A stretch of DNA of 64,000 bases from positions 36,649 through 100,648 of the forward strand of contig JAUCBJ010001975.1 in assembly GCA_032718475.1 (NCBI GenBank), read 5' to 3'. The first letter of the stretch is position 1; every line of letters starts with the position of its first letter. Positions 27,730-61,322 of this stretch are shown here, piece by piece. The translations under genes were made by a program, and so were the position numbers. The notes beneath the pieces were generated by a model that had not been told where the DNA came from, ran no database searches, and was given only the letters and a program-made list of their open reading frames with translations. This DNA is from Nemertoderma westbladi. Lineage: Eukaryota; Animalia; Xenacoelomorpha.

Positions 27730-28442
27730 GGGGAGGGGTACACCATTTTGGTCCAAAATATGTCGAAATTTTTTTTATGGTCTATTATAATGCACCATTG
27801 AATGTTGTTTTCAAATCTGAAAACCGCTATGTAATAGCTCTTTTAGTTTTCATGTTATCTAAATTTTCATTTAGGGAATCCTATTGAAATTACTATTACT
27901 ATGTATAATGAAAGGTCGATTATCTCCAAATATTTTTTTCATGAAATTGTCAACTTCAAAACCCTTCTACTTCTACAATTTTTGAGCAATTAGTCTGAAA
28001 CTTTCTGTGGGTGTCTACATAGCCACCCTGCATAAAAGTATCAGACAACTTTTCGAAATTTTTTGTTAATAAAATTTAATACTATTTATAAAAAACCTAA
28101 AAATTTGCATAAATTTGCAGCGCCACCTAGCGGTGCAGAATTATTTTAACAAAATTTCGCCTGATAGTTATGTTGCCCCATCTTTGATCTATCATATAAA
28201 AAAACTTTCATGTGATTAGGTTCAAAACTATAAAAGCCTTAGGGTTTTAAGTGCAACCAAGTTTTTTTTGTTGTTAACTAGTATTAACTAATATTAAATA
28301 GCGAAAAATTTTTTTTTTCTGACTTGTCATGTAGAATAGCATCTTAGGCATCTATATGCCAAATTTTAGCCAAAACCAAACAATTTTGAAACGCTGAGAG
28401 TGATAAATCGAAGAGTTGTCCGAAAATGGTGTACCCCCCCCC
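27730..28442. mobile_element. Non-autonomous DNA transposon (MITE), Kolobok-like, 713 bp, TTAA target-site duplication
   Basis: TTAA at 27726-27729 and 28443-28446. Left end GGGGAGGGGTACACCATTTTGG and right end CCGAAAATGGTGTACCCCCCCCC form terminal inverted repeats. No ORF. TTAA TSD with purine (GG) 5' termini fits Kolobok rather than piggyBac (CC termini). Confidence 0.85.
28116..28137 (-). promoter_or_regulatory. CTCF-type binding motif inside the MITE (second copy at 31456-31477)
   Basis: Minus strand TGCACCGCTAGGTGGCGCTGCA closely matches the CTCF core CC(A/G)CYAGRKGGCRC, and it is a GC-rich patch in an AT-rich element. Motif match only. Confidence 0.5.
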
Positions 28443-31069
28443 TTAATAGTCGCAGAACCATGGGCGAAGTCAGTAAGTTAATAGTCACAGAGAACCATGG
28501 GCGAAGCAGGCTAGTTAATAGTCACAGAGAACCATGGGCGAAGCAAGTAAGTTAATAGTCACAGAGAACCATGGGCGAAGCAGGCTAGTTAATAGTCACA
28601 GATAACCATGGGCGAAGCAGGCTAGTTAATAGTCACAGATAACCATGGGCGAAGCAGGTTATTTAATAGTCACAGAGAACCATGGGCAATGCAGGTAAGT
28701 TAATAGTCACATAGAACCATGGGCGAAGTCAGTAAGTTAATAGTCACAGAGAACCATGGGCAATGCAGGCTAGTTAATAGTCACAGATAACCATGGGCGA
28801 AGCAGGTTATTTAATAGTCACAGAGAACCATGGGCAATGCAGGTAAGTTAATAGTCACATAGAACCATGGGCGAAGTCAGTAAGTTAATAGTCACAGAGA
28901 ACCATGGGCAATGCAGGTAAGTTAATAGTCACAGAGAACCATGGGCGAAGCAAGTAAGTTAATAGTCACAGAGAACCCTGGGTGAAGCTGGTTAATTAAT
29001 AGTCACAGAGAACCATGGGCAATGCAGGGAAGTTAATAGTCACATAGAACCATGGGCAATGCAGGTAAGTTAATAGTCACATAGAACCATGGGCGAAGTC
29101 AGTAAGTTAATAGTCTCAGAGAACCATGGGCGAAGAATGTAAGTTGATAGTCAAAGAGAACCATGGGCAAAGCAGGTAAGTTAATAGTCTCAGAGAACCA
29201 TGGGCGAAGCAGGTTAGTTAATAGTCACAGAGAACCATGGGCGAAGCAGGTTAGTTAATAGTCACAGAGAACCATGGGCAATGCAGGTAAGTTAATAGTC
29301 ACAGAGAACCATGAGCGAAGCGAGTAAGATAATAGTCACAGAGAACCATTGGCGAAGCAGGTTAGTTAATAGTCACAGAGAACCATGGGCGAAGCAAGTA
29401 AGTTAATAGTCACAGAGAACCATGGGCGAAGCAAGTAAGTTACTGGTCACAGAGAACCATGGGCGAAGCAAGTAAGTTAATAGTCACAGAGAACCAAGGG
29501 CGAAGCCGGTTAGTTAATCGTCACAGAGAACCATGGGCGAAGCAAGCAAGTTAATAGTCACAGAGAACCATTTGGGCGAAGCAGGTTAGTTAATAGTCAC
29601 AGAGAACCATGGGCAATGCAGGTAAGTTAATAGTCACAGAGAACCATGGGCGAAGCGAGTAAGATAATAGTCACAGAGAACCATTGGCGAAGCAGGTTAG
29701 TTAATAGTCACAGAGAACCATGGGCGAAGCAAGTAAGTTAATAGTCACAGAGAACCATGGGCTAAGCAAGTAAGTTACTGGTCACAGAGAACCATGGGCG
29801 AAGCAAGTAAGTTAATAGTCACAGAGATCCACGGGCGAGGCCGGTTAGTTAATCGTCACAGAGAACCATGGGCGAAGCAAGTAAGTTAATAGTCACAGAG
29901 AACCATTTGGGCGAAGCAGGTTAGTTAATAGTCACAGAGAACCATGGGCAATGCGGGTTAGTTAATAGTCACAGAGAACCATGGGCAATGCAGGTAAGTT
30001 AATAGTCACATAGAACAATGGGCGAAGTCAGTAAGTTAATAGTCGCAGAGAACCATGGGCGGAGCAGGTTAGTTAATAGTCTCAGAGAACCATGGGCGAA
30101 GTCAGTAAGTTAATAGTCACATAGAACCATGGGCGAAGCAGGTTAGTTAATAGTCACAGAGAACCATGGGCAATGCAGGTAAGTTAATAGTCACATAGAA
30201 CCATGGGCGAAGTCAGTAAGATAATAGTCACAGAGAACCATTGGCGAAGCAGGTTAGTTAATAGTCACAGAGAACCATGGGCAATGCAGGTAAGTTAATA
30301 GTCACATAGAACCATGGGCGAAGTCAGTAAGTTAATAGTCACAGAGAACCATGGGCGAAGCAGGTTAGTTAATAGTCACAGAGAACCATGGGCAATGCAG
30401 GTAAGTTAATAGTCACATAGAACCATGGGCGATGTCAGTAAGTTAATAGTCACAGAGAACCATGGGCGAAGCAGGTTAGTTAATAGTCACAGAGAACCAT
30501 GGACGAAGCCAGTAAGTTAATAGTCACAGAGAACCATGGGCTAATCCAGTAAGTTAATAGTTACAGAGAACCATGGGTGAAGCAGGTTAGTTAATAGTCA
30601 CAGAGAACCATGGGCGAAGCAGGTTAGTTAATAGTCACAAAGAACCATGGGCGAAGCAGGTTAGTTAATAGTCACAGAGAACCATGGGCGAAGCAGGTTA
30701 GTTAATAGAAACAGAGAACCATGGGCGAAGCCAGTAAGTTAATAGTCACAGAGAACCATGGGCGAAGCCAGTAAGTTAATAGTCACAGAGAACCATGGGC
30801 GAAGCATGTTAGTTAATAGTCACAGAGAACCATGGGCGAAGCAAGTAAGTTAATAGTCACAGAGAACCATGGGCGAAGCAAGTAAGTTAATAGTCACAGA
30901 TAACCATGGGCGTAGAAAGTAAGTTATTAGTCACAGATGGGCGAAGCAGGTTAGTTTATAGTCACAGAGAACCATGGACGAAGCAGGTTAGTTAATAGTC
31001 ACAGAGAACCATGGGCAATGCAGGTAAGTTAATAGTCACATAGAACCATGGGCGAAGTCAGTAAGTTAA

Positions 31070-31785
31070 GGGGAGGGGTACACCATTTTGGTCCAAAATA
31101 TGTCGAAATTTTTTTTATGGTCTATTATAATGCACCATTGAATGTTGTTTTCAAATCTGAAAACCGCTATGTAATAGCTCTTTTAGTTTTCATGTTATCT
31201 AAATTTTCATTTAGGGAATCCTATTGAAATTACTATTACTATGTATAATGAAAGGTCGATTATCTCCAAATATTTTTTTCATGAAATTGTCAACTTCAAA
31301 ACCCTTCTACTTCTACAATTTTTGAGCAATTAGTCTGAAACTTTCTGTGGGTGTCTACATAGCCACCCTGCATAAAAGTATCAGACAACTTTTCGAAATT
31401 TTTTGTTAATAAAATTTAATACTATTTATAAAAAACCTAAAAATTTGCATAAATTTGCAGCGCCACCTAGCGGTGCAGAATTATTTTAACAAAATTTCGC
31501 CTGATAGTTATGTTGCCCCATCTTTGATCTATCATATAAAAAAACTTTCATGTGATTAGGTTCAAAACTATAAAAGCCTTAGGGTTTTAAGTGCAACCAA
31601 GTTTTTTTTGTTGTTAACTAGTATTAACTAATATTAAATAGCGAAAAATTTTTTTTTTCTGACTTGTCATGTAGAATAGCATCTTAGGCATCTATATGCC
31701 AAATTTTAGCCAAAACCAAACAATTTTGAAACGCTGAGAGTGATAAATCGAAGAGTTGTCCGAAAATGGTGTACCCCCCCCCCCC
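31070..31785. mobile_element. Second copy of the same Kolobok-like MITE (716 bp)
   Basis: Same sequence and same flanking satellite variants at offset 3340. Terminal C-run is 12 versus 9. TTAA on both sides. Confidence 0.85.
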
Positions 31786-33613
31786 TTAATAGTCGCAGAA
31801 CCATGGGCGAAGTCAGTAAGTTAATAGTCACAGAGAACCATGGGCGAAGCAGGCTAGTTAATAGTCACAGAGAACCATGGGCGAAGCAAGTAAGTTAATA
31901 GTCACAGAGAACCATGGGCGAAGCAGGCTAGTTAATAGTCACAGATAACCATGGGCGAAGCAGGCTAGTTAATAGTCACAGATAACCATGGGCGAAGCAG
32001 GTTATTTAATAGTCACAGAGAACCATGGGCAATGCAGGTAAGTTAATAGTCACATAGAACCATGGGCGAAGTCAGTAAGTTAATAGTCACAGAGAACCAT
32101 GGGCAATGCAGGCTAGTTAATAGTCACAGATAACCATGGGCGAAGCAGGTTATTTAATAGTCACAGAGAACCATGGGCAATGCAGGTAAGTTAATAGTCA
32201 CATAGAACCATGGGCGAAGTCAGTAAGTTAATAGTCACAGAGAACCATGGGCAATGCAGGTAAGTTAATAGTCACAGAGAACCATGGGCGAAGCAAGTAA
32301 GTTAATAGTCACAGAGAACCCTGGGTGAAGCTGGTTAATTAATAGTCACAGAGAACCATGGGCAATGCAGGGAAGTTAATAGTCACATAGAACCATGGGC
32401 AATGCAGGTAAGTTAATAGTCACATAGAACCATGGGCGAAGTCAGTAAGTTAATAGTCTCAGAGAACCATGGGCGAAGAATGTAAGTTGATAGTCAAAGA
32501 GAACCATGGGCAAAGCAGGTAAGTTAATAGTCTCAGAGAACCATGGGCGAAGCAGGTTAGTTAATAGTCACAGAGAACCATGGGCGAAGCAGGTTAGTTA
32601 ATAGTCACAGAGAACCATGGGCAATGCAGGTAAGTTAATAGTCACAGAGAACCATGAGCGAAGCGAGTAAGATAATAGTCACAGAGAACCATTGGCGAAG
32701 CAGGTTAGTTAATAGTCACAGAGAACCATGGGCGAAGCAAGTAAGTTAATAGTCACAGAGAACCATGGGCGAAGCAAGTAAGTTACTGGTCACAGAGAAC
32801 CATGGGCGAAGCAAGTAAGTTAATAGTCACAGAGAACCAAGGGCGAAGCCGGTTAGTTAATCGTCACAGAGAACCATGGGCGAAGCAAGCAAGTTAATAG
32901 TCACAGAGAACCATTTGGGCGAAGCAGGTTAGTTAATAGTCACAGAGAACCACGGGCAATGCAGGTAAGTTAATAGTCACAGAGAACCATGGGCGAAGCG
33001 AGTAAGATAATAGTCACAGAGAACCATTGGCGAAGCAGGTTAGTTAATAGTCACAGAAAACCATGGGCGAAGCAAGTAAGTTAATAGTCACAGAGAACCA
33101 TGGGCTAAGCAAGTAAGTTACTGGTCACAGAGAACCATGGGCGAAGCAAGTAAGTTAATAGTCACAGAGATCCACGGGCGAGGCCGGTTAGTTAATCGTC
33201 ACAGAGAACCATGGGCGAAGCAAGTAAGTTAATAGTCACAGAGAACCATTTGGGCGAAGCAGGTTAGTTAATAGTCACAGAGAACCATGGGCAATGCGGG
33301 TTAGTTAATAGTCACAGAGAACCTTGGGCGAAGCAAGTAAGTTAATAGTCACAGAGAACCATTTGGGCGAAGCAGGTTAGTTGATATTCACAGAGAACCA
33401 TGGGCAATGCGGGTTAGTTAATCCGAGAACCATGGATATTATGATTGTTTAAAGAGGGATGCCAACCCCATTGGTTAGGACCTACCACTTAATCAAGAAG
33501 GACCATAACATCTTATGTTCTAATTTATAATGTATAAACCTGTGTATGTTAATTATTATTTATGTTTATTATTTTTGTAATTCTACTCACCTAAAATATA
33601 TCATTCTATTTAG

Positions 33614-33708
33614 GTGTGTTCGCTTATTAATGGTCAAGTATTCGCAGACTGCCATTCCCTGGTACAAGCGTCAATCTACTACGATTGGTGTGTTTTCGAT
33701 TCTTGTGG
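33614..33708 (+). CDS. Exon (95 nt, phase 0/2): C8 domain, VCSLINGQVFADCHSLVQASIYYDWCVFDSCG
   Basis: Acceptor tcattctatttag|G and donor GG|GTAAGT. Typical C8 motif 'C..L....F..CH..V....YY..CV.D.C'. Confidence 0.92.
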
Positions 33709-36655: not shown

Positions 36656-36797
36656 ATGCGATAAAGGTGGAGATTGTGAATGTCCTTGTACCGTGATTGC
36701 GGCCTACGCAGAAGAATGCCAGAGTCAGGGGGTGCAGGTCAGGTGGAGGAGACCAGATTTCTGTCCAGAAATGTGCGAAAATGGTCAAGTTTATGAG
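36656..36797 (+). CDS. Exon (142 nt, phase 2/0): C8 end / TIL start, CDKGGDCECPCTVIAAYAEECQSQGVQVRWRRPDFCPEMCENGQVYE
   Basis: Acceptor ttgcag|A and donor GAG|GTGAGC. Has the hallmark 'GGDCEC.C..IAAYA..C...G....WR....CP' of D3-type assemblies. Confidence 0.95.
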
Positions 36798-41317: not shown

Positions 41318-41438
41318 GTTTGTGGTCCAGCTTGCTCACAGAACTGCGAAAACTTTGCTGCCGGTATCGCCGGAAGTAATGTTTGTGACCAACAATGCGT
41401 CGAGGGTTGTTACTGTCCTAAGGGCCAAGTGTTGGATG
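41318..41438 (+). CDS. Exon (121 nt, phase 0/1): TIL domain, VCGPACSQNCENFAAGIAGSNVCDQQCVEGCYCPKGQVLDG
   Basis: Acceptor gttgtttctatag|G and donor G|GTAAGT. TIL signature 'CG.AC...C...C...CVEGC.CP.G.VL'. Confidence 0.94.
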
Positions 41439-41814: not shown

Positions 41815-41895
41815 GTTCAAGATGTGTAGATCCTAACGACCCAGTTGATGGATGTCAGTGTTACAGCGAAAAAACCGGCAAACATTACCCACCAG
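41815..41895 (+). CDS. Exon (81 nt, phase 1/1): TIL end / E-module start, SRCVDPNDPVDGCQCYSEKTGKHYPPG
   Basis: Acceptor ttaacttaatttag|G and donor CAG|GTTAAT. In frame with both neighbours, with the 'CV...C.C......G..Y.PG' pattern. Confidence 0.88.
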
Positions 41896-42728
41896 GTTAA
41901 TCATACATACATTTTAAATCGGCAAGCATTACCTACCAGGTTAATCATATATACATTTTAAATTGGCAAACATTACCTACCAGGTTAATCATACATACAT
42001 TTTAAATTGGCAAGCATTACCTACCAGGTTAATCATATATACATTTTAAATTGGCAAACATTACCTACCAGGTTAATCATACATACATTTTAAATTGGCA
42101 AGCATTACCTACCAGGTTAATCATACATACATTTTAAATTGGCAAGCATTACCTACCAGGTTAATCATATATACATTTTAAATTGGCAAGCATTAACCAC
42201 CAGGTAAATCATACATTTTAAATTGGCAAGTGTTACCTACCACGTTAATCATACATACATTTTAAATTGGCAAGCATTACCCACCAGGTTAATCATACAT
42301 ACATTTTAAATTGGCAAGCATTACCTACCAGGTTAATCATACATACATTTTAAATTGGCAAGCATTACCCACCAGGTTAATCATACATACATTTTAAATT
42401 GGCAAGCATTACCTACCAGGATAATCATATATACATTTTAAATTGGAAAACATTACCTACCAGGTTAATCATACATACATTTTAAATTGGCAAGCATTAC
42501 CTACCAGGTTAATCATATATACATTTTAAATTGGCAAGCATTAACCACCAGGTAAATCATACATTTTACAGGTTAAACATACATTTTAAATTGGCAAACA
42601 TTACCCACCAGGTAAATCATACATTTTAAATTGGCAAGCATTACCCACCAGGTTAATCATACATGCATTTTAAATTGGCAAACATTACCCACCACGTTAA
42701 TCAAACATACATTTTAAATTGGCAAGCA
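41877..42728 (+). repeat. 44-bp minisatellite spanning the exon end and 5' splice site (about 19 copies)
   Basis: Monomer GGCAA(A/G)CATTACC(C/T)ACCAG|GTTAATCATACATACATTTTAAATT. The first copy includes the last 19 exon nt and the real donor at 41896. Confidence 0.95.
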
Positions 42729-42850
42729 AAGGCATAATTCAATAAATAAATCCCAATAATACTACTGAAACATTTAACTTATTGTACCGGTACTGCTCTT
42801 ATGTTTACTAATAATTAAACTTTTCAGGCAACATAATTTACTTATTATTT

Positions 42851-45800
42851 ATACCATGACAGGTAGCGTTCTCTTTTTACAAATATTTTATATTTTCTGT
42901 TCTATTTTACTAATATTTTGCCATTACAGGTAGCGTTCTCTATTTTACTAATATTTTGCCATTACAGGTAGCGTTCTCTATTTTACTAATATTTTGCCAT
43001 TACAGGTAGCATTCTCTATTTTACTAATATTTTGCCATTACAGGTAGCGTTCTCTATTTTACTAATATTTTGCCATTATAGGTAGCGTTCTCTATTTTAC
43101 TAATATTTTGCCATTACAGGTAGCGTTCTCTATTTTACTAATATTTTGCCATTACAGGTAGCGTTCTCTATTTTACTAATATTTTGCCATTACAGGTAGC
43201 GTTCTCAATTTTACTAATATTTTGCCATTATAGGTAGCGTTCTCTATTTTACTAATATTTTGCCATTATTGGTAGCATTCTCTATTTTACTAATATTTTG
43301 CCATTATAGGTAGCGTTCTCTATTTTACTAATATTTTGCCATTATAGGTAGCGTTCTCTATTTTACTAATATTTTGCCATTATTGGTAGCATTCTCTATT
43401 TTACTAATATTTTGCCATTATAGGTAGCGTTCTCTATTTTACTAATATTTTGCCATTATTGGTAGCGTTCTCTATTTTACTAATATTTTGCCTTATAGGT
43501 AGCGTTCTCTATTTTACTAATATTTTGCCATTATAGGTAGCGTTCTCTATTTTACTAATATTTTGCCATTATAGGTAGCGTTCTCTATTTTACTAATATT
43601 TTGCCATTACAGGTAGCGTTCTCTATTTTACTAATATTTTGCCATTACAGGTAGCGTTCTCTATTTTACTAATATTTAGCCATTATAGGTAGCGTTCTCT
43701 ATTTTACTAATATTTTGCCATTATAGGTAGCGTTCTCTATTTTACTAATATTTTGCCATTACAGGTAGCGTTCTCTATTTTACTAATATTTTGCCATTAT
43801 AGGTAGCGTTCTCTATTTTACTAATATTTTGCCATTATAGGTAGCGTTCTCTATTTTACTAATATTTTGCCATTATAGGTAGCGTTCTCTATTTACTAAT
43901 ATTTTGCCATTACAGGTAGCGTTCTCTATTTTACTAATATTTTGCCATTATAGGTAGCGTTCTCTATTTTACTAATATTTTCCCATTATAGGTAGCGTTC
44001 TCTATTTTACTAATATTTTCCCATTATAGGTAGCGTTCTCTATTTTACTAATATTTTGCCATTATAGGTAGCGTTCTCTATTTTACTAATATTTTGCCAT
44101 TATAGGTAGCGTTCTCTATTTTACTAATATTTTGCCATTATAGGTAGCGTTCTCTATTTTACTAATATTTTCCCATTATAGGTAGCGTTCTCTATTTTAC
44201 TAATATTTTGCCATTACAGGTAGCGTTCTCTATTTTACTAATATTTTGCCATTACAGGTAGCGTTCTCTATTTTACTAATATTTTCCCATTATAGGTAGC
44301 GTTCTCTATTTTACTAATATTTTCCCATTATAGGTAGCGTTCTCTATTTTACTAATATTTTCCCATTATAGGTAGCGTTCTCTATTTTACTAATATTTTC
44401 CCATTATAGGTAGCGTTCTCTATTTTACTAATATTTTCCCATTATAGGTAGCGTTCTCTATTTTACTAATATTTTCCCATTATAGGTAGCGTTCTCTATT
44501 TTACTAATATTTTCCCATTATAGGTAGCGTTCTCTATTTTACTAATATTTTGCCATTACAGGTAGCGTTCTCTATTTTACTAATATTTTGCCATTACAGG
44601 TAGCGTTCTCTATTTTACTAATATTTTGCCATTATAGGTAGCGTTCTCTATTTTACTAATATTTTGCCATTATTGGTAGCATTCTCTATTTTACTAATAT
44701 TTTGCCATTATAGGTAGCGTTCTCTATTTTACTAATATTTTGCCATTACAGGTAGCGTTCTCTATTTTACTAATATTTTGCCATTATTGGTAGCATTCTC
44801 TATTTTACTAATATTTTGCCATTATAGGTAGCGTTCTCTATTTTACTAATATTTTGCCATTACAGGTAGCGTTCTCTATTTTACTAATATTTTGCCATTA
44901 CAGGTAGCGTTCTCTATTTTACTAATATTTTGCCATTATAGGTAGCGTTCTCTATTTTACTAATATTTTCCCATTATAGGTAGCGTTCTCTATTTTACTA
45001 ATATTTTCCCATTATAGGTAGCGTTCTCTATTTTACTAATATTTTGCCATTATAGGTAGCGTTCTCTATTTTACTAATATTTTGCCATTATTGGTAGCAT
45101 TCTCTATTTTACTAATATTTTGCCATTATAGGTAGCGTTCTCTATTTTACTAATATTTTGCCATTACAGGTAGCGTTCTCTGTTTTACTAATATTTTGCC
45201 ATTACAGGTAGCGTTCTCTATTTTACTAATATTTTGCCATTATAGGTAGCGTTCTCTATTTTACTAATATTTTCCCATTATAGGTAGCGTTCTCTATTTT
45301 ACTAATATTTTCCCATTATAGGTAGCGTTCTCTATTTTACTAATATTTTCCCATTATTGGTAGCGTTCTCTATTTTACTAATATTTTGCCATTATTGGTA
45401 GCGTTCTCTATTTTACTAATATTTTGCCATTATAGGTAGCGTTCACTATTTTACTAATATTTTCCCATTATAGGTAGCGTTCTCTATTTTACTAATATTT
45501 TGCCATTATTGGTAGCGTCCTCTATTTTACTAATATTTTGCCATTATAGGTAGCGTTCTCTATTTTACTAATATTTTCCCATTATAGGTAGCGTTCTCTA
45601 TTTTACTAATATTTTGCCATTATAGGTAGCGTTCTCTATTTTACTAATATTTTGCCTTATAGGTAGCGTTCTCTATTTTACTAATATTTTGCCATTACAG
45701 GTAGCGTTCTCTATTTTACTAATATTTTGCCATTATAGGTAGCGTTCTCTATTTTACTAATATTTTGCCATTATAGGTAGCGTTCTCTATTTCACTAATA

Positions 45801-48800
45801 TTTTGCCATTATAGGTAGCGTTCTCTATTTTACTATTATTTTGCCATTATTGGTAGCGTTCTCTATTTTACTAATATTTTGCCATTATAGGTAGCGTTCT
45901 CTATTTTACTAATATTTTGCCATTACAGGTAGCGTTCTCTATTTTACTAATATTTTGCCATTATAGGTAGCGTTCTCTATTTTACTAATATTTTGCCATT
46001 ATAGGTAGCGTTCTCTATTTTACTATTATTTTGCCATTATTGGTAGCGTTCTCTATTTTACTAATATTTTGCCATTACAGGTAGCGTTCTCTATTTTACT
46101 AATATTTTGCCATTATAGGTAGCGTTCTCTATTTTACTAATATTTTGCCATTACAGGTAGCGTTCTCTATTTTACTAATATTTTGCCATTATAGGTAGCG
46201 TTCTCTATTTTACTAATATTTTGCCATTACAGGTAGCGTTCTCTATTTTACTAATATTTTGCCATTACAGGTAGCGTTCTCTATTTTACTAATATTTTGC
46301 CATTATAGGTAGCGTTCTCTATTTTACTAATATTTTCCCATTATAGGTAGCGTTCTCTATTTTACTATTATTTTGCCATTATTGGTAGCGTTCTCTATTT
46401 TACTAATATTTTGCCATTACAGGTAGCGTTCTCTATTTTACTAATATTTTGCCATTATAGGTAGCGTTCTCTATTTTACTAATATTTTGCCATTACAGGT
46501 AGCGTTCTCTATTTTACTAATATTTTGCCATTATAGGTAGCGTTCTCTATTTTACTAATATTTTGCCATTACAGGTAGCGTTCTCTATTTTACTAATATT
46601 TTGCCATTATAGGTAGCGTTCTCTATTTTACTAATATTTTGCCATTACAGGTAGCGTTCTCTATTTTACTAATATTTTGCCATTACAGGTAGCGTTCTCT
46701 ATTTTACTAATATTTTGCCATTATAGGTAGCGTTCTCTATTTTACTAATATTTTGCCATTATAGGTAGCGTTCTCTATTTTACTAATATTTTGCCATTAC
46801 AGGTAGCGTTCTCTATTTTACTAATATTTTGCCATTATAGGTAGCGTTCTCTATTTTACTAATATTTTGCCATTACAGGTAGCGTTCTCTATTTTACTAA
46901 TATTTTGCCATTATAGGTAGCGTTCTCTATTTTACTAATATTTTGCCATTATAGGTAGCGTTCTCTATTTTACTAATATTTTGCCATTACAGGTAGCGTT
47001 CTCTATTTTACTAATATTTTGCCATTATAGGTAGCGTTCTCTATTTTACTAATATTTTCCCATTATAGGTAGCGTTCTCTATTTTACTAATATTTTGCCA
47101 TTATAGGTAGCGTTCTCTATTTTACTAATATTTTGCCATTACAGGTAGCGTTCTCTATTTTACTAATATTTTGCCATTATAGGTAGCGTTCTCTATTTTA
47201 CTAATATTTTGCCATTACAGGTAGCGTTCTCTATTTTACTAATATTTTGCCATTATAGGTAGCGTTCTCTATTTTACTAATATTTTGCCATTACAGGTAG
47301 CGTTCTCTATTTTACTAATATTTTGCCATTATAGGTAGCGTTCTCTATTTTACTAATATTTTGCCATTACAGGTAGCGTTCTCTATTTTACTAATATTTT
47401 GCCATTACAGGTAGCGTTCTCTATTTTACTAATATTTTGCCATTACAGGTAGCGTTCTCTATTTTACTAATATTTTGCCATTACAGGTAGCGTTCTCTAT
47501 TTTACTAATATTTTGCCATTATAGGTAGCGTTCTCTATTTTACTAATATTTTGCCATTATAGGTAGCGTTCTCTATTTTACTAATATTTTGCCATTATAG
47601 GTAGCGTTCTCTATTTTACTAATATTTTGCCATTATAGGTAGCGTTCTCTATTTTACTAATATTTTGCCATTATAGGTAGCGTTCTCTATTTTACTAATA
47701 TTTTCCCATTACAGGTAGCATTCTCTATTTTACTAATATTTTGCCATTACAGGTAGCGTTCTCTATTTTACTAATATTTTGCCATTACAGGTAGCGTTCT
47801 CTATTTTACTAATATTTTGCCATTACAGGTAGCGTTCTCTATTTTACTAATATTTTGCCATTACAGGTAGCGTTCTCTTTTTACAAATATTTTATATTTT
47901 CTGTTCTATTTTACTAATATTTTGCCATTACAGGTAGCGTTCTCTATTTTACTAATATTTTGCCATTACAGGTAGCATTCTCTATTTTACTAATATTTTG
48001 CCATTACAGGTAGCGTTCTCTATTTTACTAATATTTTGCCATTACAGGTAGCGTTCTCTATTTTACTAATATTTTGCCATTACAGGTAGCGTTCTCTATT
48101 TTACTAATATTTTCCCATTATAGGTAGCGTTCTCTATTTTACTAATATTTTGCCATTATAGGTAGCGTTCTCTATTTTACTAATATTTTGCCATTACAGG
48201 TAGCGTTCTCTATTTTACTAATATTTTGCCATTACAGGTAGCGTTCTCTATTTTACTTATATTTTCCCATTACAGGTAGCGTTCTCTATTTTACTAATAT
48301 TTTGCCATTATAGGTAGCGTTCTCTATTTTACTAATATTTTGCCATTACAGGTAGCGTTCTCTATTTTACTAATATTTTGCCATTACAGGTAGCGTTCTC
48401 TATTTTACTAATATTTTGCCATTATAGGTAGCGTTCTCTATTTTACTAATATTTTGCCATTACAGGTAGCATTCTCTATTTTACTAATATTTTGCCATTA
48501 TAGGTAGCGTTCTCTATTTTACTAATATTTTGCCATTACAGGTAGCGTTCTCTATTTTACTAATATTTTGCCATTATAGGTAGCGTTCTCTATTTTACTA
48601 ATATTTTGCCATTACAGGTAGCGTTCTCTATTTTACTAATATTTTGCCATTACAGGTAGCGTTCTCTATTTTACTAATATTTTGCCATTATAGGTAGCGT
48701 TCTCTATTTTACTAATATTTTGCCTTATAGGTAGCGTTCTCTATTTTACTAATATTTTGCCATATAGGTAGCGTTCTCTATTTTACTAATATTTTGCCTT

Positions 48801-51800
48801 ATAGGTAGCGTTCTCTATTTTACTAATATTTTGCCATTATTGGTAGCGTTCTCTATTTTACTAATATTTTGCCATTATTGGTAGCGTTCTCTATTTTGCT
48901 AATATTTTGTCATTATAGGTAGCGTTCTCTATTTTACTAATATTTTGCCATTATAGGTAGCGTTCACTATTTTACTAATATTTTGCCATTATAGGTAGCG
49001 TTCTCTATTTTACTAATATTTTCCCATTATAGGTAGCGTTCTCTATTTTACTAATATTTTGCCATTATAGGTAGCGTTCTCTATTTTACTAATATTTTCC
49101 CATTACAGGTAGCATTCTCTATTTTACTAATATTTTGCCATTACAGGTAGCGTTCTCTATTTTACTAATATTTTGCCATTACAGGTAGCGTTCTCTATTT
49201 TACTAATATTTTGCCATTACAGGTAGCGTTCTCTATTTTACTAATATTTTGCCATTACAGGTAGCGTTCTCTTTTTACAAATATTTTATATTTTCTGTTC
49301 TATTTTACTAATATTTTGCCATTACAGGTAGCGTTCTCTATTTTACTAATATTTTGCCATTACAGGTAGCATTCTCTATTTTACTAATATTTTGCCATTA
49401 CAGGTAGCGTTCTCTATTTTACTAATATTTTGCCATTACAGGTAGCGTTCTCTATTTTACTAATATTTTGCCATTACAGGTAGCGTTCTCTATTTTACTA
49501 ATATTTTCCCATTATAGGTAGCATTCTCTATTTTACTAATATTTTGCCATTACAGGTAGCGTTCTCTATTTTACTAATATTTTGCCATTACAGGTAGCGT
49601 TCTCTATTTTACTAATATTTTGCCATTATAGGTAGCGTTCTCTATTTTACTAATATTTTCCCATTATAGGTAGCGTTCTCTATTTTACTAATATTTTGCC
49701 ATTACAGGTAGCGTTCTCTATTTTACTAATATTTTGCCTTATAGGTAGCGTTCTCTATTTTACTAATATTTTGCCATTACAGGTAGCGTTCTCTATTTTA
49801 CTAATATTTTGCCATTACAGGTAGCGTTCTCTATTTTACTAATATTTTGCCTTATAGGTAGCGTTCTCTATTTTACTAATATTTTGCCATTATAGGTAGC
49901 GTTCTCTATTTTACTAATATTTTGCCATTATAGGTAGCGTTCACTATTTTACTAATATTTTCCCATTATAGGTAGCGTTCTCTATTTTACTAATATTTTG
50001 CCATTATAGGTAGCGTTCTCTATTTTACTAATATTTTGCCATTACAGGTAGCGTTCTCTATTTTACTAATATTTTGCCATTATAGGTAGCGTTCTCTATT
50101 TTACTAATATTTTGCCATTACAGGTAGCGTTCTCTATTTTACTAATATTTTGCCATTACAGGTAGCGTTCTCTATTTTACTAATATTTTGCCATTACAGG
50201 TAGCGTTCTCTATTTTACTAATATTTTGCCATTATTGGTAGCGTTCTCTATTTTACTAATATTTTGCCATTATAGGTAGCGTTCTCTATTTTACTAATAT
50301 TTTCCCATTATTGGTAGCGTTCATTATTTTACTAATATTTTGCCATTATAGGTAGCGTTCTCTATTTTACTAATATTTTCCCATTAGAGGTAGCGTCTCT
50401 ATTTCACTAATATTTTGCCATTACAGGTAGCGTTCTCTATTTTACTAATATTTTGCCATTATAGGTAGCGTTCTCTATTTTACTAATATTTTCCCATTAG
50501 AGGTAGCGTCTCTATTTTACTAATATTTTGCCATTATAGGTAGCGTTCTCTATTTTACTAATATTTTCCCATTAGAGGTAGCGTCTCTATTTTACTAATA
50601 TTTTGCCATTACAGGTAGCGTTCTCTATTTTACTAATATTTTGCCATTATAGGTAGCGTTCTCTATTTTACTAATATTTTGCCATTACAGGTAGCGTTCT
50701 CTATTTTACTAATATTTTGCCATTATAGGTAGCGTTCTCTATTTTACTAATATTTTGCCATTACAGGTAGCGTTCTCTATTTTACTAATATTTTGCCATT
50801 ATAGATAGCGTTCTCTATTTTACTAATATTTTGCCATTACAGGTAGCGTTCTCTATTTTACTAATATTTTGCCATTACAGGTAGCGTTCTCTATTTTACT
50901 AATATTTTGCCATTATAGGTAGCGTTCTCTATTTTACTAATATTTTGCCTTATAGGTAGCGTTCTCTATTTTACTAATATTTTGCCATATAGGTAGCGTT
51001 CTCTATTTTACTAATATTTTGCCTTATAGGTAGCGTTCTCTATTTTACTAATACTTTGCCATTATTGGTAGCGTTCTCTATTTTACTAATATTTTGCCAT
51101 TATTGGTAGCGTTCTCTATTTTGCTAATATTTTGTCATTATAGGTAGCGTTCTCTATTTTACTAATATTTTGCCATTATAGGTAGCGTTCACTATTTTAC
51201 TAATATTTTGCCATTATAGGTAGCGTTCTCTATTTTACTAATATTTTCCCATTATAGGTAGCGTTCTCTATTTTACTAATATTTTGCCATTATAGGTAGC
51301 GTTCACTATTTTACTAATATTTTGCCATTATAGGTAGCGTTCTCTATTTTACTAATATTTTGCCATTATAGGTAGCGTTCTCTATTTTACTATTATTTTG
51401 CCATTATAGGTAGCGTTCTCTATTTTACTAATATTTTCCCATTACAGGTAGCATTCTCTATTTTACTAATATTTTGCCATTACAGGTAGCGTTCTCTATT
51501 TTACTAATATTTTGCCATTACAGGTAGCGTTCTCTATTTTACTAATATTTTGCCATTACAGGTAGCGTTCTCTATTTTACTAATATTTTGCCATTACAGG
51601 TAGCGTTCTCTTTTTACAAATATTTTATATTTTCTGTTCTATTTTACTAATATTTTGCCATTACAGGTAGCGTTCTCTATTTTACTAATATTTTGCCATT
51701 ACAGGTAGCATTCTCTATTTTACTAATATTTTGCCATTACAGGTAGCGTTCTCTATTTTACTAATATTTTGCCATTACAGGTAGCGTTCTCTATTTTACT

Positions 51801-54800
51801 AATATTTTGCCATTACAGGTAGCGTTCTCTATTTTACTAATATTTTCCCATTATAGGTAGCATTCTCTATTTTACTAATATTTTGCCATTACAGGTAGCG
51901 TTCTCTATTTTACTAATATTTTGCCATTACAGGTAGCGTTCTCTATTTTACTAATATTTTGCCATTATAGGTAGCGTTCTCTATTTTACTAATATTTTCC
52001 CATTATAGGTAGCGTTCTCTATTTTACTAATATTTTGCCATTACAGGTAGCGTTCTCTATTTTACTAATATTTTGCCTTATAGGTAGCGTTCTCTATTTT
52101 ACTAATATTTTGCCATTACAGGTAGCGTTCTCTATTTTACTAATATTTTGCCATTACAGGTAGCGTTCTCTATTTTACTAATATTTTGCCTTATAGGTAG
52201 CGTTCTCTATTTTACTAATATTTTGCCATTATAGGTAGCGTTCTCTATTTTACTAATATTTTGCCATTATATGTAGCGTTCACTATTTTACTAATATTTT
52301 CCCATTATAGGTAGCGTTCTCTATTTTACTAATATTTTGCCATTATAGGTAGCGTTCTCTATTTTACTAATATTTTGCCATTACAGGTAGCGTTCTCTAT
52401 TTTACTAATATTTTGCCATTATAGGTAGCGTTCTCTATTTTACTAATATTTTGCCATTACAGGTAGCGTTCTCTATTTTACTAATATTTTGCCATTACAG
52501 GTAGCGTTCTCTATTTTACTAATATTTTGCCATTACAGGTAGCGTTCTCTATTTTACTAATATTTTGCCATTATTGGTAGCGTTCTCTATTTTACTAATA
52601 TTTTGCCATTATAGGTAGCGTTCTCTATTTTACTAATATTTTCCCATTATTGGTAGCGTTCATTATTTTACTAATATTTTGCCATTATAGGTAGCGTTCT
52701 CTATTTTACTAATATTTTCCCATTAGAGGTAGCGTCTCTATTTTACTAATATTTTGCCATTACAGGTAGCGTTCTCTATTTTACTAATATTTTGCCATTA
52801 TAGGTAGCGTTCTCTATTTTACTAATATTTTCCCATTAGAGGTAGCGTCTCTATTTTACTAATATTTTGCCATTACAGGTAGCGTTCTCTATTTTACTAA
52901 TATTTTGCCATTATAGGTAGCGTTCTCTATTTTACTAATATTTTGCCATTACAGGTAGCGTTCTCTATTTTACTAATATTTTGCCATTATAGGTAGCGTT
53001 CTCTATTTTACTAATATTTTGCCATTACAGGTAGCGTTCTCTATTTTACTAATATTTTGCCATTATAGATAGCGTTCTCTATTTTACTAATATTTTGCCA
53101 TTACAGGTAGCGTTCTCTATTTTACTAATATTTTGCCATTACAGGTAGCGTTCTCTATTTTACTAATATTTTGCCATTATTGGTAGCGTTCTCTATTTTA
53201 CTAATATTTTGCCATTACAGGTAGCGTTCTCTATTTTACTAATATTTTGCCATTACAGGTAGCGTTCTCTATTTTACTAATATTTTGCCATTATAGGTAG
53301 CGTTCTCTATTTTACTAATATTTTGCCATTATAGATAGCGTTCTCTATTTTACTAATATTTTGCCATTATAGATAGCGTTCTCTATTTTACTAATATTTT
53401 GCCATTACAGGTAGCGTTCTCTATTTTACTAATATTTTGCCATTACAGGTAGCGTTCTCTATTTTACTAATATTTTGCCATTATTGGTAGCGTTCTCTAT
53501 TTTACTAATATTTTGCCATTACAGGTAGCGTTCTCTATTTTACTAATATTTTGCCATTATAGGTAGCGTTCTCTATTTTACTAATATTTTGCCATTATTG
53601 GTAGCGTTCTCTATTTTACTAATATTTTGCCATTACAGGTAGCGTTCTCTATTTTACTAATATTTTGCCATTATAGGTAGCGTTCTCTATTTTACTAATA
53701 TTTTGCCATTACAGGTAGCGTTCTCTATTTTACTAATATTTTGCCATTACAGGTAGCGTTCTCTATTTTACTAATATTTTGCCATTACAGGTAGCGTTCT
53801 CTATTTTACTAATATTTTGCCATTATTGGTAGCGTTCTCTATTTTACTAATATTTTGCCATTATAGGTAGCGTTCTCTATTTTACTAATATTTTCCCATT
53901 ATTGGTAGCGTTCATTATTTTACTAATATTTTGCCATTATAGGTAGCGTTCTCTATTTTACTAATATTTTCCCATTAGAGGTAGCGTCTCTATTTTACTA
54001 ATATTTTGCCATTACAGGTAGCGTTCTCTATTTTACTAATATTTTGCCATTATAGGTAGCGTTCTCTATTTTACTAATATTTTCCCATTAGAGGTAGCGT
54101 CTCTATTTTACTAATATTTTGCCATTACAGGTAGCGTTCTCTATTTTACTAATATTTTGCCATTATAGGTAGCGTTCTCTATTTTACTAATATTTTGCCA
54201 TTACAGGTAGCGTTCTCTATTTTACTAATATTTTGCCATTATAGGTAGCGTTCTCTATTTTACTAATATTTTGCCATTACAGGTAGCGTTCTCTATTTTA
54301 CTAATATTTTGCCATTATAGATAGCGTTCTCTATTTTACTAATATTTTGCCATTACAGGTAGCGTTCTCTATTTTACTAATATTTTGCCATTACAGGTAG
54401 CGTTCTCTATTTTACTAATATTTTGCCATTATAGGTAGCGTTCTCTATTTTACTAATATTTTGCCTTATAGGTAGCGTTCTCTATTTTACTAATATTTTG
54501 CCATATAGGTAGCGTTCTCTATTTTACTAATATTTTGCCTTATAGGTAGCGTTCTCTATTTTACTAATACTTTGCCATTATTGGTAGCGTTCTCTATTTT
54601 ACTAATATTTTGCCATTATTGGTAGCGTTCTCTATTTTACTAATATTTTGCCATTATAGGTAGCGTTCTCTATTTTACTAATATTTTGCCTTATAGGTAG
54701 CGTTCTCTATTTTACTAATATTTTGCCATATAGGTAGCGTTCTCTATTTTACTAATATTTTGCCTTATAGGTAGCGTTCTCTATTTTACTAATACTTTGC

Positions 54801-57800
54801 CATTATTGGTAGCGTTCTCTATTTTACTAATATTTTCCCATTATAGGTAGCGTTCTCTATTTTACTAATATTTTGCCATTATAGGTAGCGTTCACTATTT
54901 TACTAATATTTTGCCATTATAGGTAGCGTTCTCTATTTTACTAATATTTTGCCATTATAGGTAGCGTTCTCTATTTTACTATTATTTTGCCATTATAGGT
55001 AGCGTTCTCTATTTTACTAATATTTTCCCATTACAGGTAGCATTCTCTATTTTACTAATATTTTGCCATTACAGGTAGCGTTCTCTATTTTACTAATATT
55101 TTGCCATTATAGGTAGCGTTCTCTATTTTACTAATATTTTGCCATTACAGGTAGCGTTCTCTATTTTACTAATATTTTGCCATTACAGGTAGCGTTCTCT
55201 ATTTTACTAATATTTTGCCATTACAGGTAGCGTTCTCTATTTTACTAATATTTTGCCATTATTGGTAGCGTTCTCTATTTTACTAATATTTTGCCATTAT
55301 AGGTAGCGTTCTCTATTTTACTAATATTTTCCCATTATTGGTAGCGTTCATTATTTTACTAATATTTTGCCATTATAGGTAGCGTTCTCTATTTTACTAA
55401 TATTTTCCCATTAGAGGTAGCGTCTCTATTTTACTAATATTTTGCCATTACAGGTAGCGTTCTCTATTTTACTAATATTTTGCCATTATAGGTAGCGTTC
55501 TCTATTTTACTAATATTTTCCCATTAGAGGTAGCGTCTCTATTTTACTAATATTTTGCCATTACAGGTAGCGTTCTCTATTTTACTAATATTTTGCCATT
55601 ATAGGTAGCGTTCTCTATTTTACTAATATTTTGCCATTACAGGTAGCGTTCTCTATTTTACTAATATTTTGCCATTATAGGTAGCGTTCTCTATTTTACT
55701 AATATTTTGCCATTACAGGTAGCGTTCTCTATTTTACTAATATTTTGCCATTATAGATAGCGTTCTCTATTTTACTAATATTTTGCCATTACAGGTAGCG
55801 TTCTCTATTTTACTAATATTTTGCCATTACAGGTAGCGTTCTCTATTTTACTAATATTTTGCCATTATTGGTAGCGTTCTCTATTTTACTAATATTTTGC
55901 CATTACAGGTAGCGTTCTCTATTTTACTAATATTTTGCCATTACAGGTAGCGTTCTCTATTTTACTAATATTTTGCCATTATAGGTAGCGTTCTCTATTT
56001 TACTAATATTTTGCCATTATAGATAGCGTTCTCTATTTTACTAATATTTTGCCATTATAGATAGCGTTCTCTATTTTACTAATATTTTGCCATTACAGGT
56101 AGCGTTCTCTATTTTACTAATATTTTGCCATTACAGGTAGCGTTCTCTATTTTACTAATATTTTGCCATTATTGGTAGCGTTCTCTATTTTACTAATATT
56201 TTGCCATTACAGGTAGCGTTCTCTATTTTACTAATATTTTGCCATTATAGGTAGCGTTCTCTATTTTACTAATATTTTGCCATTATTGGTAGCGTTCTCT
56301 ATTTTACTAATATTTTGCCATTACAGGTAGCGTTCTCTATTTTACTAATATTTTGCCATTATAGGTAGCGTTCTCTATTTTACTAATATTTTGCCATTAC
56401 AGGTAGCGTTCTCTATTTTACTAATATTTTGCCATTACAGGTAGCGTTCTCTATTTTACTAATATTTTGCCATTACAGGTAGCGTTCTCTATTTTACTAA
56501 TATTTTGCCATTATTGGTAGCGTTCTCTATTTTACTAATATTTTGCCATTATAGGTAGCGTTCTCTATTTTACTAATATTTTCCCATTATTGGTAGCGTT
56601 CATTATTTTACTAATATTTTGCCATTATAGGTAGCGTTCTCTATTTTACTAATATTTTCCCATTAGAGGTAGCGTCTCTATTTTACTAATATTTTGCCAT
56701 TACAGGTAGCGTTCTCTATTTTACTAATATTTTGCCATTATAGGTAGCGTTCTCTATTTTACTAATATTTTCCCATTAGAGGTAGCGTCTCTATTTTACT
56801 AATATTTTGCCATTACAGGTAGCGTTCTCTATTTTACTAATATTTTGCCATTATAGGTAGCGTTCTCTATTTTACTAATATTTTGCCATTACAGGTAGCG
56901 TTCTCTATTTTACTAATATTTTGCCATTATAGGTAGCGTTCTCTATTTTACTAATATTTTGCCATTACAGGTAGCGTTCTCTATTTTACTAATATTTTGC
57001 CATTATAGATAGCGTTCTCTATTTTACTAATATTTTGCCATTACAGGTAGCGTTCTCTATTTTACTAATATTTTGCCATTACAGGTAGCGTTCTCTATTT
57101 TACTAATATTTTGCCATTATAGGTAGCGTTCTCTATTTTACTAATATTTTGCCTTATAGGTAGCGTTCTCTATTTTACTAATATTTTGCCATATAGGTAG
57201 CGTTCTCTATTTTACTAATATTTTGCCTTATAGGTAGCGTTCTCTATTTTACTAATACTTTGCCATTATTGGTAGCGTTCTCTATTTTACTAATATTTTG
57301 CCATTATTGGTAGCGTTCTCTATTTTACTAATATTTTGCCATTATAGGTAGCGTTCTCTATTTTACTAATATTTTGCCTTATAGGTAGCGTTCTCTATTT
57401 TACTAATATTTTGCCATATAGGTAGCGTTCTCTATTTTACTAATATTTTGCCTTATAGGTAGCGTTCTCTATTTTACTAATACTTTGCCATTATTGGTAG
57501 CGTTCTCTATTTTACTAATATTTTCCCATTATAGGTAGCGTTCTCTATTTTACTAATATTTTGCCATTATAGGTAGCGTTCACTATTTTACTAATATTTT
57601 GCCATTATAGGTAGCGTTCTCTATTTTACTAATATTTTGCCATTATAGGTAGCGTTCTCTATTTTACTATTATTTTGCCATTATAGGTAGCGTTCTCTAT
57701 TTTACTAATATTTTCCCATTACAGGTAGCATTCTCTATTTTACTAATATTTTGCCATTACAGGTAGCGTTCTCTATTTTACTAATATTTTGCCATTACAG

Positions 57801-60800
57801 GTAGCGTTCTCTATTTTACTAATATTTTGCCATTACAGGTAGCGTTCTCTATTTTACTAATATTTTGCCATTACAGGTAGCGTTCTCTTTTTACAAATAT
57901 TTTATATTTTCTGTTCTATTTTACTAATATTTTGCCATTACAGGTAGCGTTCTCTATTTTACTAATATTTTGCCATTACAGGTAGCATTCTCTATTTTAC
58001 TAATATTTTGCCATTACAGGTAGCGTTCTCTATTTTACTAATATTTTGCCATTACAGGTAGCGTTCTCTATTTTACTAATATTTTGCCATTACAGGTAGC
58101 GTTCTCTATTTTACTAATATTTTCCCATTATAGGTAGCATTCTCTATTTTACTAATATTTTGCCATTACAGGTAGCGTTCTCTATTTTACTAATATTTTG
58201 CCATTACAGGTAGCGTTCTCTATTTTACTAATATTTTGCCATTATAGGTAGCGTTCTCTATTTTACTAATATTTTCCCATTATAGGTAGCGTTCTCTATT
58301 TTACTAATATTTTGCCATTACAGGTAGCGTTCTCTATTTTACTAATATTTTGCCTTATAGGTAGCGTTCTCTATTTTACTAATATTTTGCCATTACAGGT
58401 AGCGTTCTCTATTTTACTAATATTTTGCCATTACAGGTAGCGTTCTCTATTTTACTAATATTTTGCCTTATAGGTAGCGTTCTCTATTTTACTAATATTT
58501 TGCCATTATAGGTAGCGTTCTCTATTTTACTAATATTTTGCCATTATAGGTAGCGTTCACTATTTTACTAATATTTTCCCATTATAGGTAGCGTTCTCTA
58601 TTTTACTAATATTTTGCCATTATAGGTAGCGTTCTCTATTTTACTAATATTTTGCCATTACAGGTAGCGTTCTCTATTTTACTAATATTTTGCCATTATA
58701 GGTAGCGTTCTCTATTTTACTAATATTTTGCCATTACAGGTAGCGTTCTCTATTTTACTAATATTTTGCCATTACAGGTAGCGTTCTCTATTTTACTAAT
58801 ATTTTGCCATTACAGGTAGCGTTCTCTATTTTACTAATATTTTGCCATTATTGGTAGCGTTCTCTATTTTACTAATATTTTGCCATTATAGGTAGCGTTC
58901 TCTATTTTACTAATATTTTCCCATTATTGGTAGCGTTCATTATTTTACTAATATTTTGCCATTATAGGTAGCGTTCTCTATTTTACTAATATTTTCCCAT
59001 TAGAGGTAGCGTCTCTATTTTACTAATATTTTGCCATTACAGGTAGCGTTCTCTATTTTACTAATATTTTGCCATTATAGGTAGCGTTCTCTATTTTACT
59101 AATATTTTCCCATTAGAGGTAGCGTCTCTATTTTACTAATATTTTGCCATTACAGGTAGCGTTCTCTATTTTACTAATATTTTGCCATTATAGGTAGCGT
59201 TCTCTATTTTACTAATATTTTGCCATTACAGGTAGCGTTCTCTATTTTACTAATATTTTGCCATTATAGGTAGCGTTCTCTATTTTACTAATATTTTGCC
59301 ATTACAGGTAGCGTTCTCTATTTTACTAATATTTTGCCATTATAGATAGCGTTCTCTATTTTACTAATATTTTGCCATTACAGGTAGCGTTCTCTATTTT
59401 ACTAATATTTTGCCATTACAGGTAGCGTTCTCTATTTTACTAATATTTTGCCATTATTGGTAGCGTTCTCTATTTTACTAATATTTTGCCATTACAGGTA
59501 GCGTTCTCTATTTTACTAATATTTTGCCATTACAGGTAGCGTTCTCTATTTTACTAATATTTTGCCATTATAGGTAGCGTTCTCTATTTTACTAATATTT
59601 TGCCATTATAGATAGCGTTCTCTATTTTACTAATATTTTGCCATTATAGATAGCGTTCTCTATTTTACTAATATTTTGCCATTACAGGTAGCGTTCTCTA
59701 TTTTACTAATATTTTGCCATTACAGGTAGCGTTCTCTATTTTACTAATATTTTGCCATTATTGGTAGCGTTCTCTATTTTACTAATATTTTGCCATTACA
59801 GGTAGCGTTCTCTATTTTACTAATATTTTGCCATTATAGGTAGCGTTCTCTATTTTACTAATATTTTGCCATTATTGGTAGCGTTCTCTATTTTACTAAT
59901 ATTTTGCCATTATAGATAGCGTTCTCTATTTTACTAATATTTTGCCATTATAGATAGCGTTCTCTATTTTACTAATATTTTGCCATTACAGGTAGCGTTC
60001 TCTATTTTACTAATATTTTGCCATTACAGGTAGCGTTCTCTATTTTACTAATATTTTGCCATTATAGGTAGCGTTCTCTATTTTACTAATATTTTGCCAT
60101 TATAGATAGCGTTCTCTATTTTACTAATATTTTGCCATTACAGGTAGCGTTCTCTATTTTACTAATATTTTGCAATTATAGATAGCGTTCTCTATTTTAC
60201 TAATATTTTGCCATTACAGGTAGCGTTCTCTATTTTACTAATATTTTGCCATTATTGGTAGCGTTCTCTATTTTACTAATATTTTGCCATTATTGGTAGC
60301 GTTCTCTATTTTACTAATATTTTGCCATTATAGGTAGCGTTCTCTATTTTACTAATATTTTGCCATTACAGGTAGCGTTCTCTATTTTACTAATATTTTG
60401 CCATTACAGGTAGCGTTCTCTATTTTACTAATATTTTGCCATTATAGGTAGCGTTCTCTATTTTACTAATATTTTGCCATTACAGGTAGCGTTCTCTATT
60501 TTACTAATATTTTGCCATTACAGGTAGCGTTCTCTATTTTACTAATATTTTGCCATTACAGGTAGCGTTCTCTATTTTACTAATATTTTGCCATTACAGG
60601 TAGCGTTCTCTATTTTACTAATATTTTGCCATTATAGGTAGCGTTCTCTATTTTACTAATATTTTGCCATTATAGATAGCGTTCTCTATTTTACTAATAT
60701 TTTGCCATTACAGGTAGCGTTCTCTATTTTACTAATATTTTGCCATTATTGGTAGCGTTCTCTATTTTACTAATATTTTGCCATTATAGGTAGCGTTCTC

Positions 60801-61185
60801 TATTTTACTAATATTTTGCCATTTCAGGTAGCGTTCTCTATTTTACTAATATTTTGCCATTACAGGTAGCGTTCTCTATTTTACTAATATTTTGCCATTA
60901 TAGGTAGCGTTCTCTATTTTACTAATATTTTGCCATTACAGGTAGCGTTCTCTATTTTACTAATATTTTGCCATTACAGGTAGCGTTCTCTATTTTACTA
61001 ATATTTTGCCATTACAGGTAGCGTTCTCTATTTTACTAATATTTTGCCATTATAGGTAGCGTTCTCTATTTTACTAATATTTTGCCATTACAGGTAGCGT
61101 TCTCTATTTTACTAATATTTTGCCATTACAGGTAGCGTTCTCTATTTTACTAATATTTTGCCATTACAGGTAGCGTTCTCTATTT
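42851..61185 (+). repeat. 38-bp satellite made of the branch point, 3' splice site and first 16 nt of the next exon (about 480 copies)
   Basis: Monomer GTAGCGTTCTCTATTTTACTAATATTTTGCCATTA(C/T)AG. The final junction CAG|GTAGCGTTCTCTATTT at 61169/61170 is the real acceptor, running into unique coding sequence. Confidence 0.97.
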
Positions 61186-61322
61186 CGATTGCGAGGACTG
61201 CCATTGTCGGAATGCTGCATTCGACTGTCAGAAGAAAGATTGCCCACCAACTAAATGTCCAGATCATTTCTATTGCGATGGTTACCCTGACTGCGCAGAG
61301 GGAGTCGATGAACAGAACTGCA
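61170..61322 (+). CDS. Exon (153 nt, phase 1/1): E/vWC-like module and first partial LDLa, GSVLYFDCEDCHCRNAAFDCQKKDCPPTKCPDHFYCDGYPDCAEGVDEQNC
   Basis: Completes the Gly codon G|GT from the previous exon (YPPG-SVL..DC..C.C). Donor A|GTATGT. LDLa motif CDG..DC..G.DE..C. Confidence 0.92.

Follow-up and report, generated by a model that had tools for sequence, protein, structure and literature searches.

How is an intron removed accurately when its 3′ splice site, branch point included, has been repeated hundreds of times ahead of the one acceptor that keeps the reading frame? The question is raised by a locus of the xenacoelomorph Nemertoderma westbladi (GenBank assembly GCA_032718475.1, contig JAUCBJ010001975.1, positions 36,649 to 100,648 of the forward strand), in which an intron of an apparently SCO-spondin-like gene holds an 18-kb array of 38-bp units. 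This stretch of 64,000 nucleotides is called the window below, and all coordinates count from its first letter. We describe the array as a minisatellite of 479 copies of an intron-exon junction, and consider it likely, with good though not full confidence, that it arose by one duplication, grew neutrally and is removed whole with the intron through the last acceptor. The features on which this reading turns are:

42863..61169, + strand: acceptor-straddling minisatellite of 479 units (Tandem Repeats Finder, TRF, and segmentation)
61148..61169, + strand: final copy of the intron end, CAG preceded by TACTAAT (branch A at 61153); the sole acceptor with an open frame (frame check)
41815..41895, + strand: upstream exon of 81 nt, 3′ end CAG (frame, alignments)
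61170..61322, + strand: true exon of 153 nt, phase 1-1, with a VWC-like half and LDLa; the exon part of the 38-bp unit copies its first 16 nt (Pfam, frame, alignments)

Anatomy of the array

Our own segmentation gave 479 full units at 42863-61169 on the plus strand, with the first of 480 unit starts at 42863 and the last at 61170; TRF reported a period of 38, 483 copies and 95% matches over 42901-61185. The units fall into 34 sequence types and measure 38 nt (434 units), 37 nt (40) or 67 nt (five). Each joins 22 nt of intron 3′ end (branch motif, pyrimidine stretch and YAG) to 16 nt of exon start, that of the exon at 61170-61322, and the branch motif TACTAAT places the branch A at -17 from the array junction. 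Past unit position +16 the true exon goes on with CG, an internal unit with TA. The 18-kb array of 38-nt GT...branch point...YAG units that an earlier note had described from the letters is thus real (479 units, branch A at -17). Its figure of about 480 YAG/GT sites has to be lowered to about 400 intact ones: the 480 array junctions read TAG/GT (202), CAG/GT (201), TTG/GT (46), TAG/AT (17), GAG/GT (13) and TAT/GT (1), so that YAG/GT is intact at 403 and 77 (16%) deviate. YAG is absent from 60 of the 479 units; it occurs with the branch motif in 415, and in 398 a GT also follows, which bears out the statement that the units carry sequence-intact acceptors. The array has 472 SspI sites and a GC content of 30%, compared with 48% in the true exon, and G runs are absent from the unit.

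Two studies provide DNA runs (X1 and X3 from one, X2 from the other) in which the 38-bp unit is found at very high multiplicity, as many variant contigs with a summed depth far above that of the flanks; runs X4 and X5 gave no contigs for it. Because the unit is so abundant in both studies, the array is no invention of the assembly. Its 18.3 kb is the length as assembled; the runs back unit multiplicity rather than length, and no copy number was derived from contig depths added up across the unit. One X1 contig (73 + 42 letters) bridges the left array edge, while right-edge contigs reaching 30 letters into the repeat and an X2 left-edge contig with 26 letters were not counted as bridging. No exact match of the unit was found in metagenome contigs.

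Host gene and reading frame

Ten exons within 16325-63684 join into an open frame of 437 residues with consistent phases, in which Pfam recognizes C8 and LDLa. Besides the two exons given above they are:

16325..16420, + strand: exon, VWD-C8 linker (homologue alignment)
33614..33708, + strand: exon, first half of C8 (Pfam, frame)
36656..36797, + strand: exon, second half of C8 (Pfam, frame)
41318..41438, + strand: exon, TIL-like (frame, PDB hits)
61875-61991, 62436-62635, 63239-63390 and 63530-63684, + strand: four exons of the LDLa region (Pfam, frame, alignments)

The fourth exon (41318-41438) matches the TIL regions of VWF and mucins among PDB hits. Of 150 proteins from a search of representatives, 148 align with the ten-exon model; the best, the SCO-spondin-like protein P0065, does so over residues 1-433 of 437 with 38% identity (E 6e-98). 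The homologues are collinear, six of ten checked by name are called SCO-spondin or SCO-spondin-like, and no close relative of this animal is among the hits. Single exons were less informative: word-index protein searches with them gave no match (proteins up to 2000 aa), and a PDB search with the first exon returned chance hits only (E above 3). The host gene shows the defining SCO-spondin-like layout, in which LDL-receptor class A repeats come after VWD-C8-TIL units, and it is these LDLa repeats that distinguish SCO-spondin among VWD-C8-TIL proteins (PMC4948705). By domain order and homologue names we class it as SCO-spondin-like.

The junction of 41895 with 61170 splits a Gly codon, formed by the last G of exon 41815-41895 and the GT at 61170. 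Among the 105 alignments that span it, 80 keep the Gly; 43 of the 105 pass the junction without an indel, and the remainder are mostly shifted by 1-3 residues. Since the ten-exon model is open and homologous and the split Gly is kept, the 16 exon-derived nucleotides of the unit are real coding sequence. The AG/GT at this junction needs no special explanation, because GT forms the first letters of five of the ten host-gene exons. The array-bearing intron measures 19,274 nt, of which the non-array part accounts for only 137 nt; the shortest of the nine host-gene introns has 139 nt.

Among the 480 possible starts, only 61170 is both in frame and stop-free. Acceptors at +38 and +76 shift the frame and that at +114 reads TAG; the earlier statements that only the last AG yields the protein, that one or two extra units frameshift and that three read a TAG stop all held on this frame check. 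Internal pseudo-exons fare no better, only 7 of 2896 (up to 300 nt) being in frame and stop-free.

Origin and growth of the array

Because the unit spans the intron end and the exon start, the branch motif, AG and GT of every unit are, judging from this layout, inherited from the duplicated junction. That these splice-like motifs arose de novo was considered, and is ruled out by the homology-verified exon part of the unit. Nor is any special origin needed: the unit simply copies a stretch across a 3′ splice site that was already there, and repeats of this kind have been described. One short duplication across the intron-exon border would likely have made the first unit pair. The heptamer TCTATTT occurs both at 42901-42907, in a non-unit context, and at exon +10 to +16 (61179-61185), 38 nt in register, and this microhomology is a candidate for having seeded the duplication; the reconstruction is uncertain because a degenerate older unit sits at the left edge of the array (about 42838-42890). 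A second acceptor-like site (TACTAAT ... TTTTCAG) lies at 42806-42827, just upstream of the array and before the degenerate older unit.

Growth is likely to have been neutral, by unequal exchange. The array contains nested, imperfect higher-order blocks of 71 and 165 units, and with such block-wise expansion the unit copies are not independent. Two blocks in it are identical:

52387..57762, + strand: two adjoining 2688-bp blocks of 71 units each, zero mismatches (segmentation)

These identical blocks reflect either a very recent expansion or a local duplication in the assembly. Array make-up varies between the window, X1 and X2 (as seen in short-read contigs, from which allele lengths are not readable). 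A branch-breaking TAGTAAT variant of the long unit, of which the window's array has none, reaches a depth of 133 (X1) and 1837 (X2) in single contigs, with flanks at 25-50. Unit turnover resembles that of a variable number tandem repeat (VNTR). At base 42734 the window is unlike both X1 and X2, so that neither need be its source, or the assembly has an error there.

The splice signals in the units show no sign of being kept, with the low power that 25 events give. The most variable unit position is the C/T of YAG, and the third most altered of the 38 is the A of AG (46 of 474). With the C/T site excluded, the four AG/GT positions are altered in 3.4% of copies, compared with 1.0% elsewhere; they account for three of the 25 distinct changes (2.6 expected), and the branch 7-mer for four more. 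Selection for YAG had been suggested, to be refuted by a retention no higher than at other positions; this is the outcome found (60 of 479 units without YAG, its A the third most altered position), and the suggestion falls.

Comparison with known repeats

On its sequence features the array is a ‘mirage’, or junction-spanning, minisatellite, that is, a known repeat type at an extreme size: the unit spans an exon-intron border, its 38 bp lie within the range of 10-160 bp of the cases compared, and many but not all units keep their signals. The name was given to border-spanning tandem repeats of amphioxus, in Adh3 (via citation) and in the globins BflGb6 and BflGb9 (PMC3087553). In BflGb6 an intron 3′ end with the exon start is repeated, the units of 150-160 bp numbering 3 and 6, and reverse transcription PCR suggests normal splicing (PMC3087553); the present array, known from DNA, extends for 18 kb with 479 units of 38 bp.

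Human VNTRs that reiterate a donor (F7 IVS7, CBS IVS13, LMNB2, PDGF and 6-16) have 5-26 copies, the edge unit spanning the junction and the pseudo-sites being identical to the true one; the exon-adjacent site is used, with the nearest pseudo-sites in CBS and 6-16 (PMC1557585). As there described they are a direct model for the 37-, 44- and 76-mer arrays of the window (listed below), but they lie on the donor side and their unit has neither branch point nor AG, whereas the 38-mer is on the acceptor side. Duplication of a 3′ splice site is shared with CBS 844ins68, in which there is one extra copy and the distal acceptor is chosen in dependence on G runs (PMC1802585, PMC4479818); of the two, only CBS has G runs between the sites.

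Among recursive splice sites (Drosophila ratchet points and mammalian RS-exons; PMC8605326, PMC6224609), ratchet points are described as few, as ultraconserved and as exceeding the competing donor in strength. The array is like ratchet points in its juxtaposed AG/GT within a long intron (branch motif, YAG and GT together in 398 of 479 units; an intron of 19,274 nt), and unlike them, on these accounts, in that its sites number hundreds, are equal and lack a G at +5, and that AG/GT varies at least as much as the other unit positions. In the model of Rogers, AGGT duplication inside an exon makes a new intron (PMC3265369); removal restores the sequence in both cases, but here the copied stretch includes an acceptor already in place, and the only effect is a longer intron. 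From the known cases compared, the array is distinct in scale (479 units, versus 2-26) and in sharing its gene with two other giant junction arrays. No acceptor array of hundreds of units was found in literature on this repeat type, a search in which the term ‘mirage’ was not used and which does not show absence from print.

Removal of the intron

How, then, would the single required acceptor be found? In the reading that we prefer, the array is probably removed inside a single intron ending at 61169. The last AG would be picked by exon definition, as it alone precedes an exon with a donor of its own (153 nt, 48% GC); we infer this because neither sequence nor predicted structure marks the last acceptor, whereas the downstream exon differs. 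Mis-spliced RNA would be destroyed by nonsense-mediated decay, because use of any other acceptor leads to a frameshift or a stop.

Several points weigh against removal as a single intron, and against neutral growth. The picture of splicing is drawn from DNA sequence. RNA folding does not set the last acceptor apart, the unpaired probability of its YAG being 0.65, compared with 0.61-0.70 at three internal sites. The donor CAG/GTAGCG that splicing to a unit would regenerate has a U1 duplex energy of -8.0 kcal/mol, which ranks it 4 of 11 and above seven of the ten true donors of the host gene (-3.3 to -12.2 kcal/mol; the array intron's own donor -5.6); duplex energy is a crude measure here. The precedents of junction repeats have 2-26 copies and not 479, and acceptor choice in CBS needed G runs between the sites, which the 38-bp unit lacks. 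Four of the eight array families of the window straddle splice sites, more than expected from uniform seeding (P 0.003-0.026, depending on the null); without the 38-bp array the same excess gives P 0.017-0.084, from one gene and post hoc. Array origin or growth may therefore not have been fully random.

The earlier note had called GTAGCG a weak donor. G is lacking at +5, where the unit has C and nine of the ten true donors have G; but an energy of -8.0 within the span of the true donors does not make the site clearly weak, and this leaves room for stepwise removal. In that account, to which we assign a low probability, splicing to an early unit would regenerate CAG/GTAGCG, and later rounds would drop whole unit multiples until the last AG was reached; most routes would give the same mRNA, and hence the array would be tolerated with no selection for it. 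The upstream exon does end in CAG, 398 of 479 units offer branch motif, YAG and GT, and the regenerated donor not only exceeds the intron's own (-8.0 versus -5.6) but is the strongest of the nine exon-exon junctions. The intron's own donor has no G at +5 either, so that donors of this kind can function in this gene. Any run of two or more units forms a GT..branch..AG segment of at least 76 nt, as in the intron birth described for AGGT duplication (PMC3265369), and the first acceptors are transcribed 18 kb ahead of the true exon. On the other hand, that C at +5 sets the unit apart from nearly all true donors, and its GT is predicted to be mostly paired (unpaired 0.09-0.22; weak evidence). Known ratchet points, as reported, are ultraconserved and outcompete the neighbor donor (PMC8605326), whereas the donors of the array are equal and unconserved, and the exon junction complex is reported to repress regenerated donors of constitutive exons (PMC6224609). 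An identical donor at the true junction must stay unused, or the exon would be skipped, a demand present with or without the array; and a single leftover unit would be too short for removal. We would also regard as improbable, to about the same degree, the wider proposal of a self-correcting satellite intron, in which a splice to any of some 400 decoys regenerates a better-than-original U1 donor, the 19-kb intron is removed stepwise, this tolerance allowed growth to 18 kb, and junction-straddling repeats are the main route of intron inflation in the genome (from about 140-210 nt of non-array sequence to 17-19 kb).

We doubt more strongly that the array does slight harm or adjusts gene dosage, with the acceptors at +38, +76 and +114 and pseudo-exons used appreciably, the products degraded and expression dropping with length, so that this allele may be poorly expressed. 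The acceptors are indeed identical in sequence and in predicted accessibility, 2896 acceptor-donor pairs lie within 300 nt, array make-up differs among the data sets, and the human 6-16 and CBS donor arrays are reported to use their nearest pseudo-sites as well (PMC1557585). The frame is nevertheless intact across ten exons, and acceptor-killing variants are not clustered by the exon, where the last 15 units all have YAG, unlike a possible result of selection against leakage. That the length is largely an assembly error, by over-expansion of a shorter array, is very improbable: the adjoining 2688-bp blocks are identical, as such an error would leave them, but the 34 unit types stand in nested, imperfect higher-order blocks, and many unit variants, at a depth far above the flanks, are present in the runs of both studies. 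Hardly any weight can be given to the 38-nt unit as a micro-intron, which the earlier note had proposed in tandem, or to the array as a selected device for recursive splicing. Every unit does have the anatomy GT...TACTAAT...YAG, yet donor and branch A are only 21 nt apart, compared with a shortest intron of 139 nt in the host gene (the only gene surveyed); AG and GT are unconserved, and duplication of the junction fully accounts for the anatomy.

Other arrays and elements in the window

Tandem arrays make up 88% of the window; six of the ten arrays lie mid-intron, and all three of more than 16 kb are of the junction-straddling type. Besides the 38-bp array, those at or near junctions are:

41877..42725, + strand: 44-bp array across the donor of the 19,274-nt intron that also holds the 38-bp array, 20 donor-like copies with the true donor (41896) first (TRF)
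16391..33405, + strand: 37-bp array straddling the donor at 16421, 17 kb (TRF, unit count)
1..16102, + strand: 76/29-bp G+T-rich array, whose unit can be read as G-L-S-W-K and then GTGAAA (translation, homologues)

The donor placed earlier at 41895/41896 stands as the edge of the upstream exon, but it is no single site, being itself the first of the 20 copies in the 44-bp array, in which the final 19 nt of that exon are repeated too. Contig depth over the 44-bp unit in X1-X3 is far above the 20 window copies; longer alleles or copies elsewhere are possible. In the 37-bp array GT is kept in 388 of 410 units, which comprise 100 types and are thus more diverged, and 42 units have a perfect CAG/GTAAGT, a better match than the true CAA/GTAAGT at 16421. 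In the 76/29-bp array, (F/L)-G-L-S-W-K and the GTGAAA behind it recur about 193 times. Because FGNSWK stands immediately ahead of the residue that opens exon 16325 in the best homologues (FGxSW[KR][VIL] in 58 of 150, FGLSWK in 4 of 150), this array likely straddles the donor of an exon left of the window, as a fourth junction array of at least 16 kb.

Two near-identical copies of an element of about 715 bp (27730-28442 and 31070-31785) lie in the 37-bp array, with terminal inverted repeats and TTAA flanks; the element resembles a non-autonomous DNA transposon, and its GG...CC ends and TTAA presumably recall Kolobok. At 38110-41214, GC-richer inserts between three 20-bp arrays have the look, on reading, of retroelement fragments.

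Implications

Even as a neutral repeat, some 400 sequence-identical acceptors with branch points ahead of the single required one amount to a large natural experiment, to which the same gene adds up to several hundred decoy donors after two other exons, 42 of them with perfect consensus. At this scale the locus could set exon definition against scanning, and could bear on the repression of regenerated donors, in a way beyond the reach of minigenes. Stepwise use, if true, would tie the expansion of satellites to recursive splicing.

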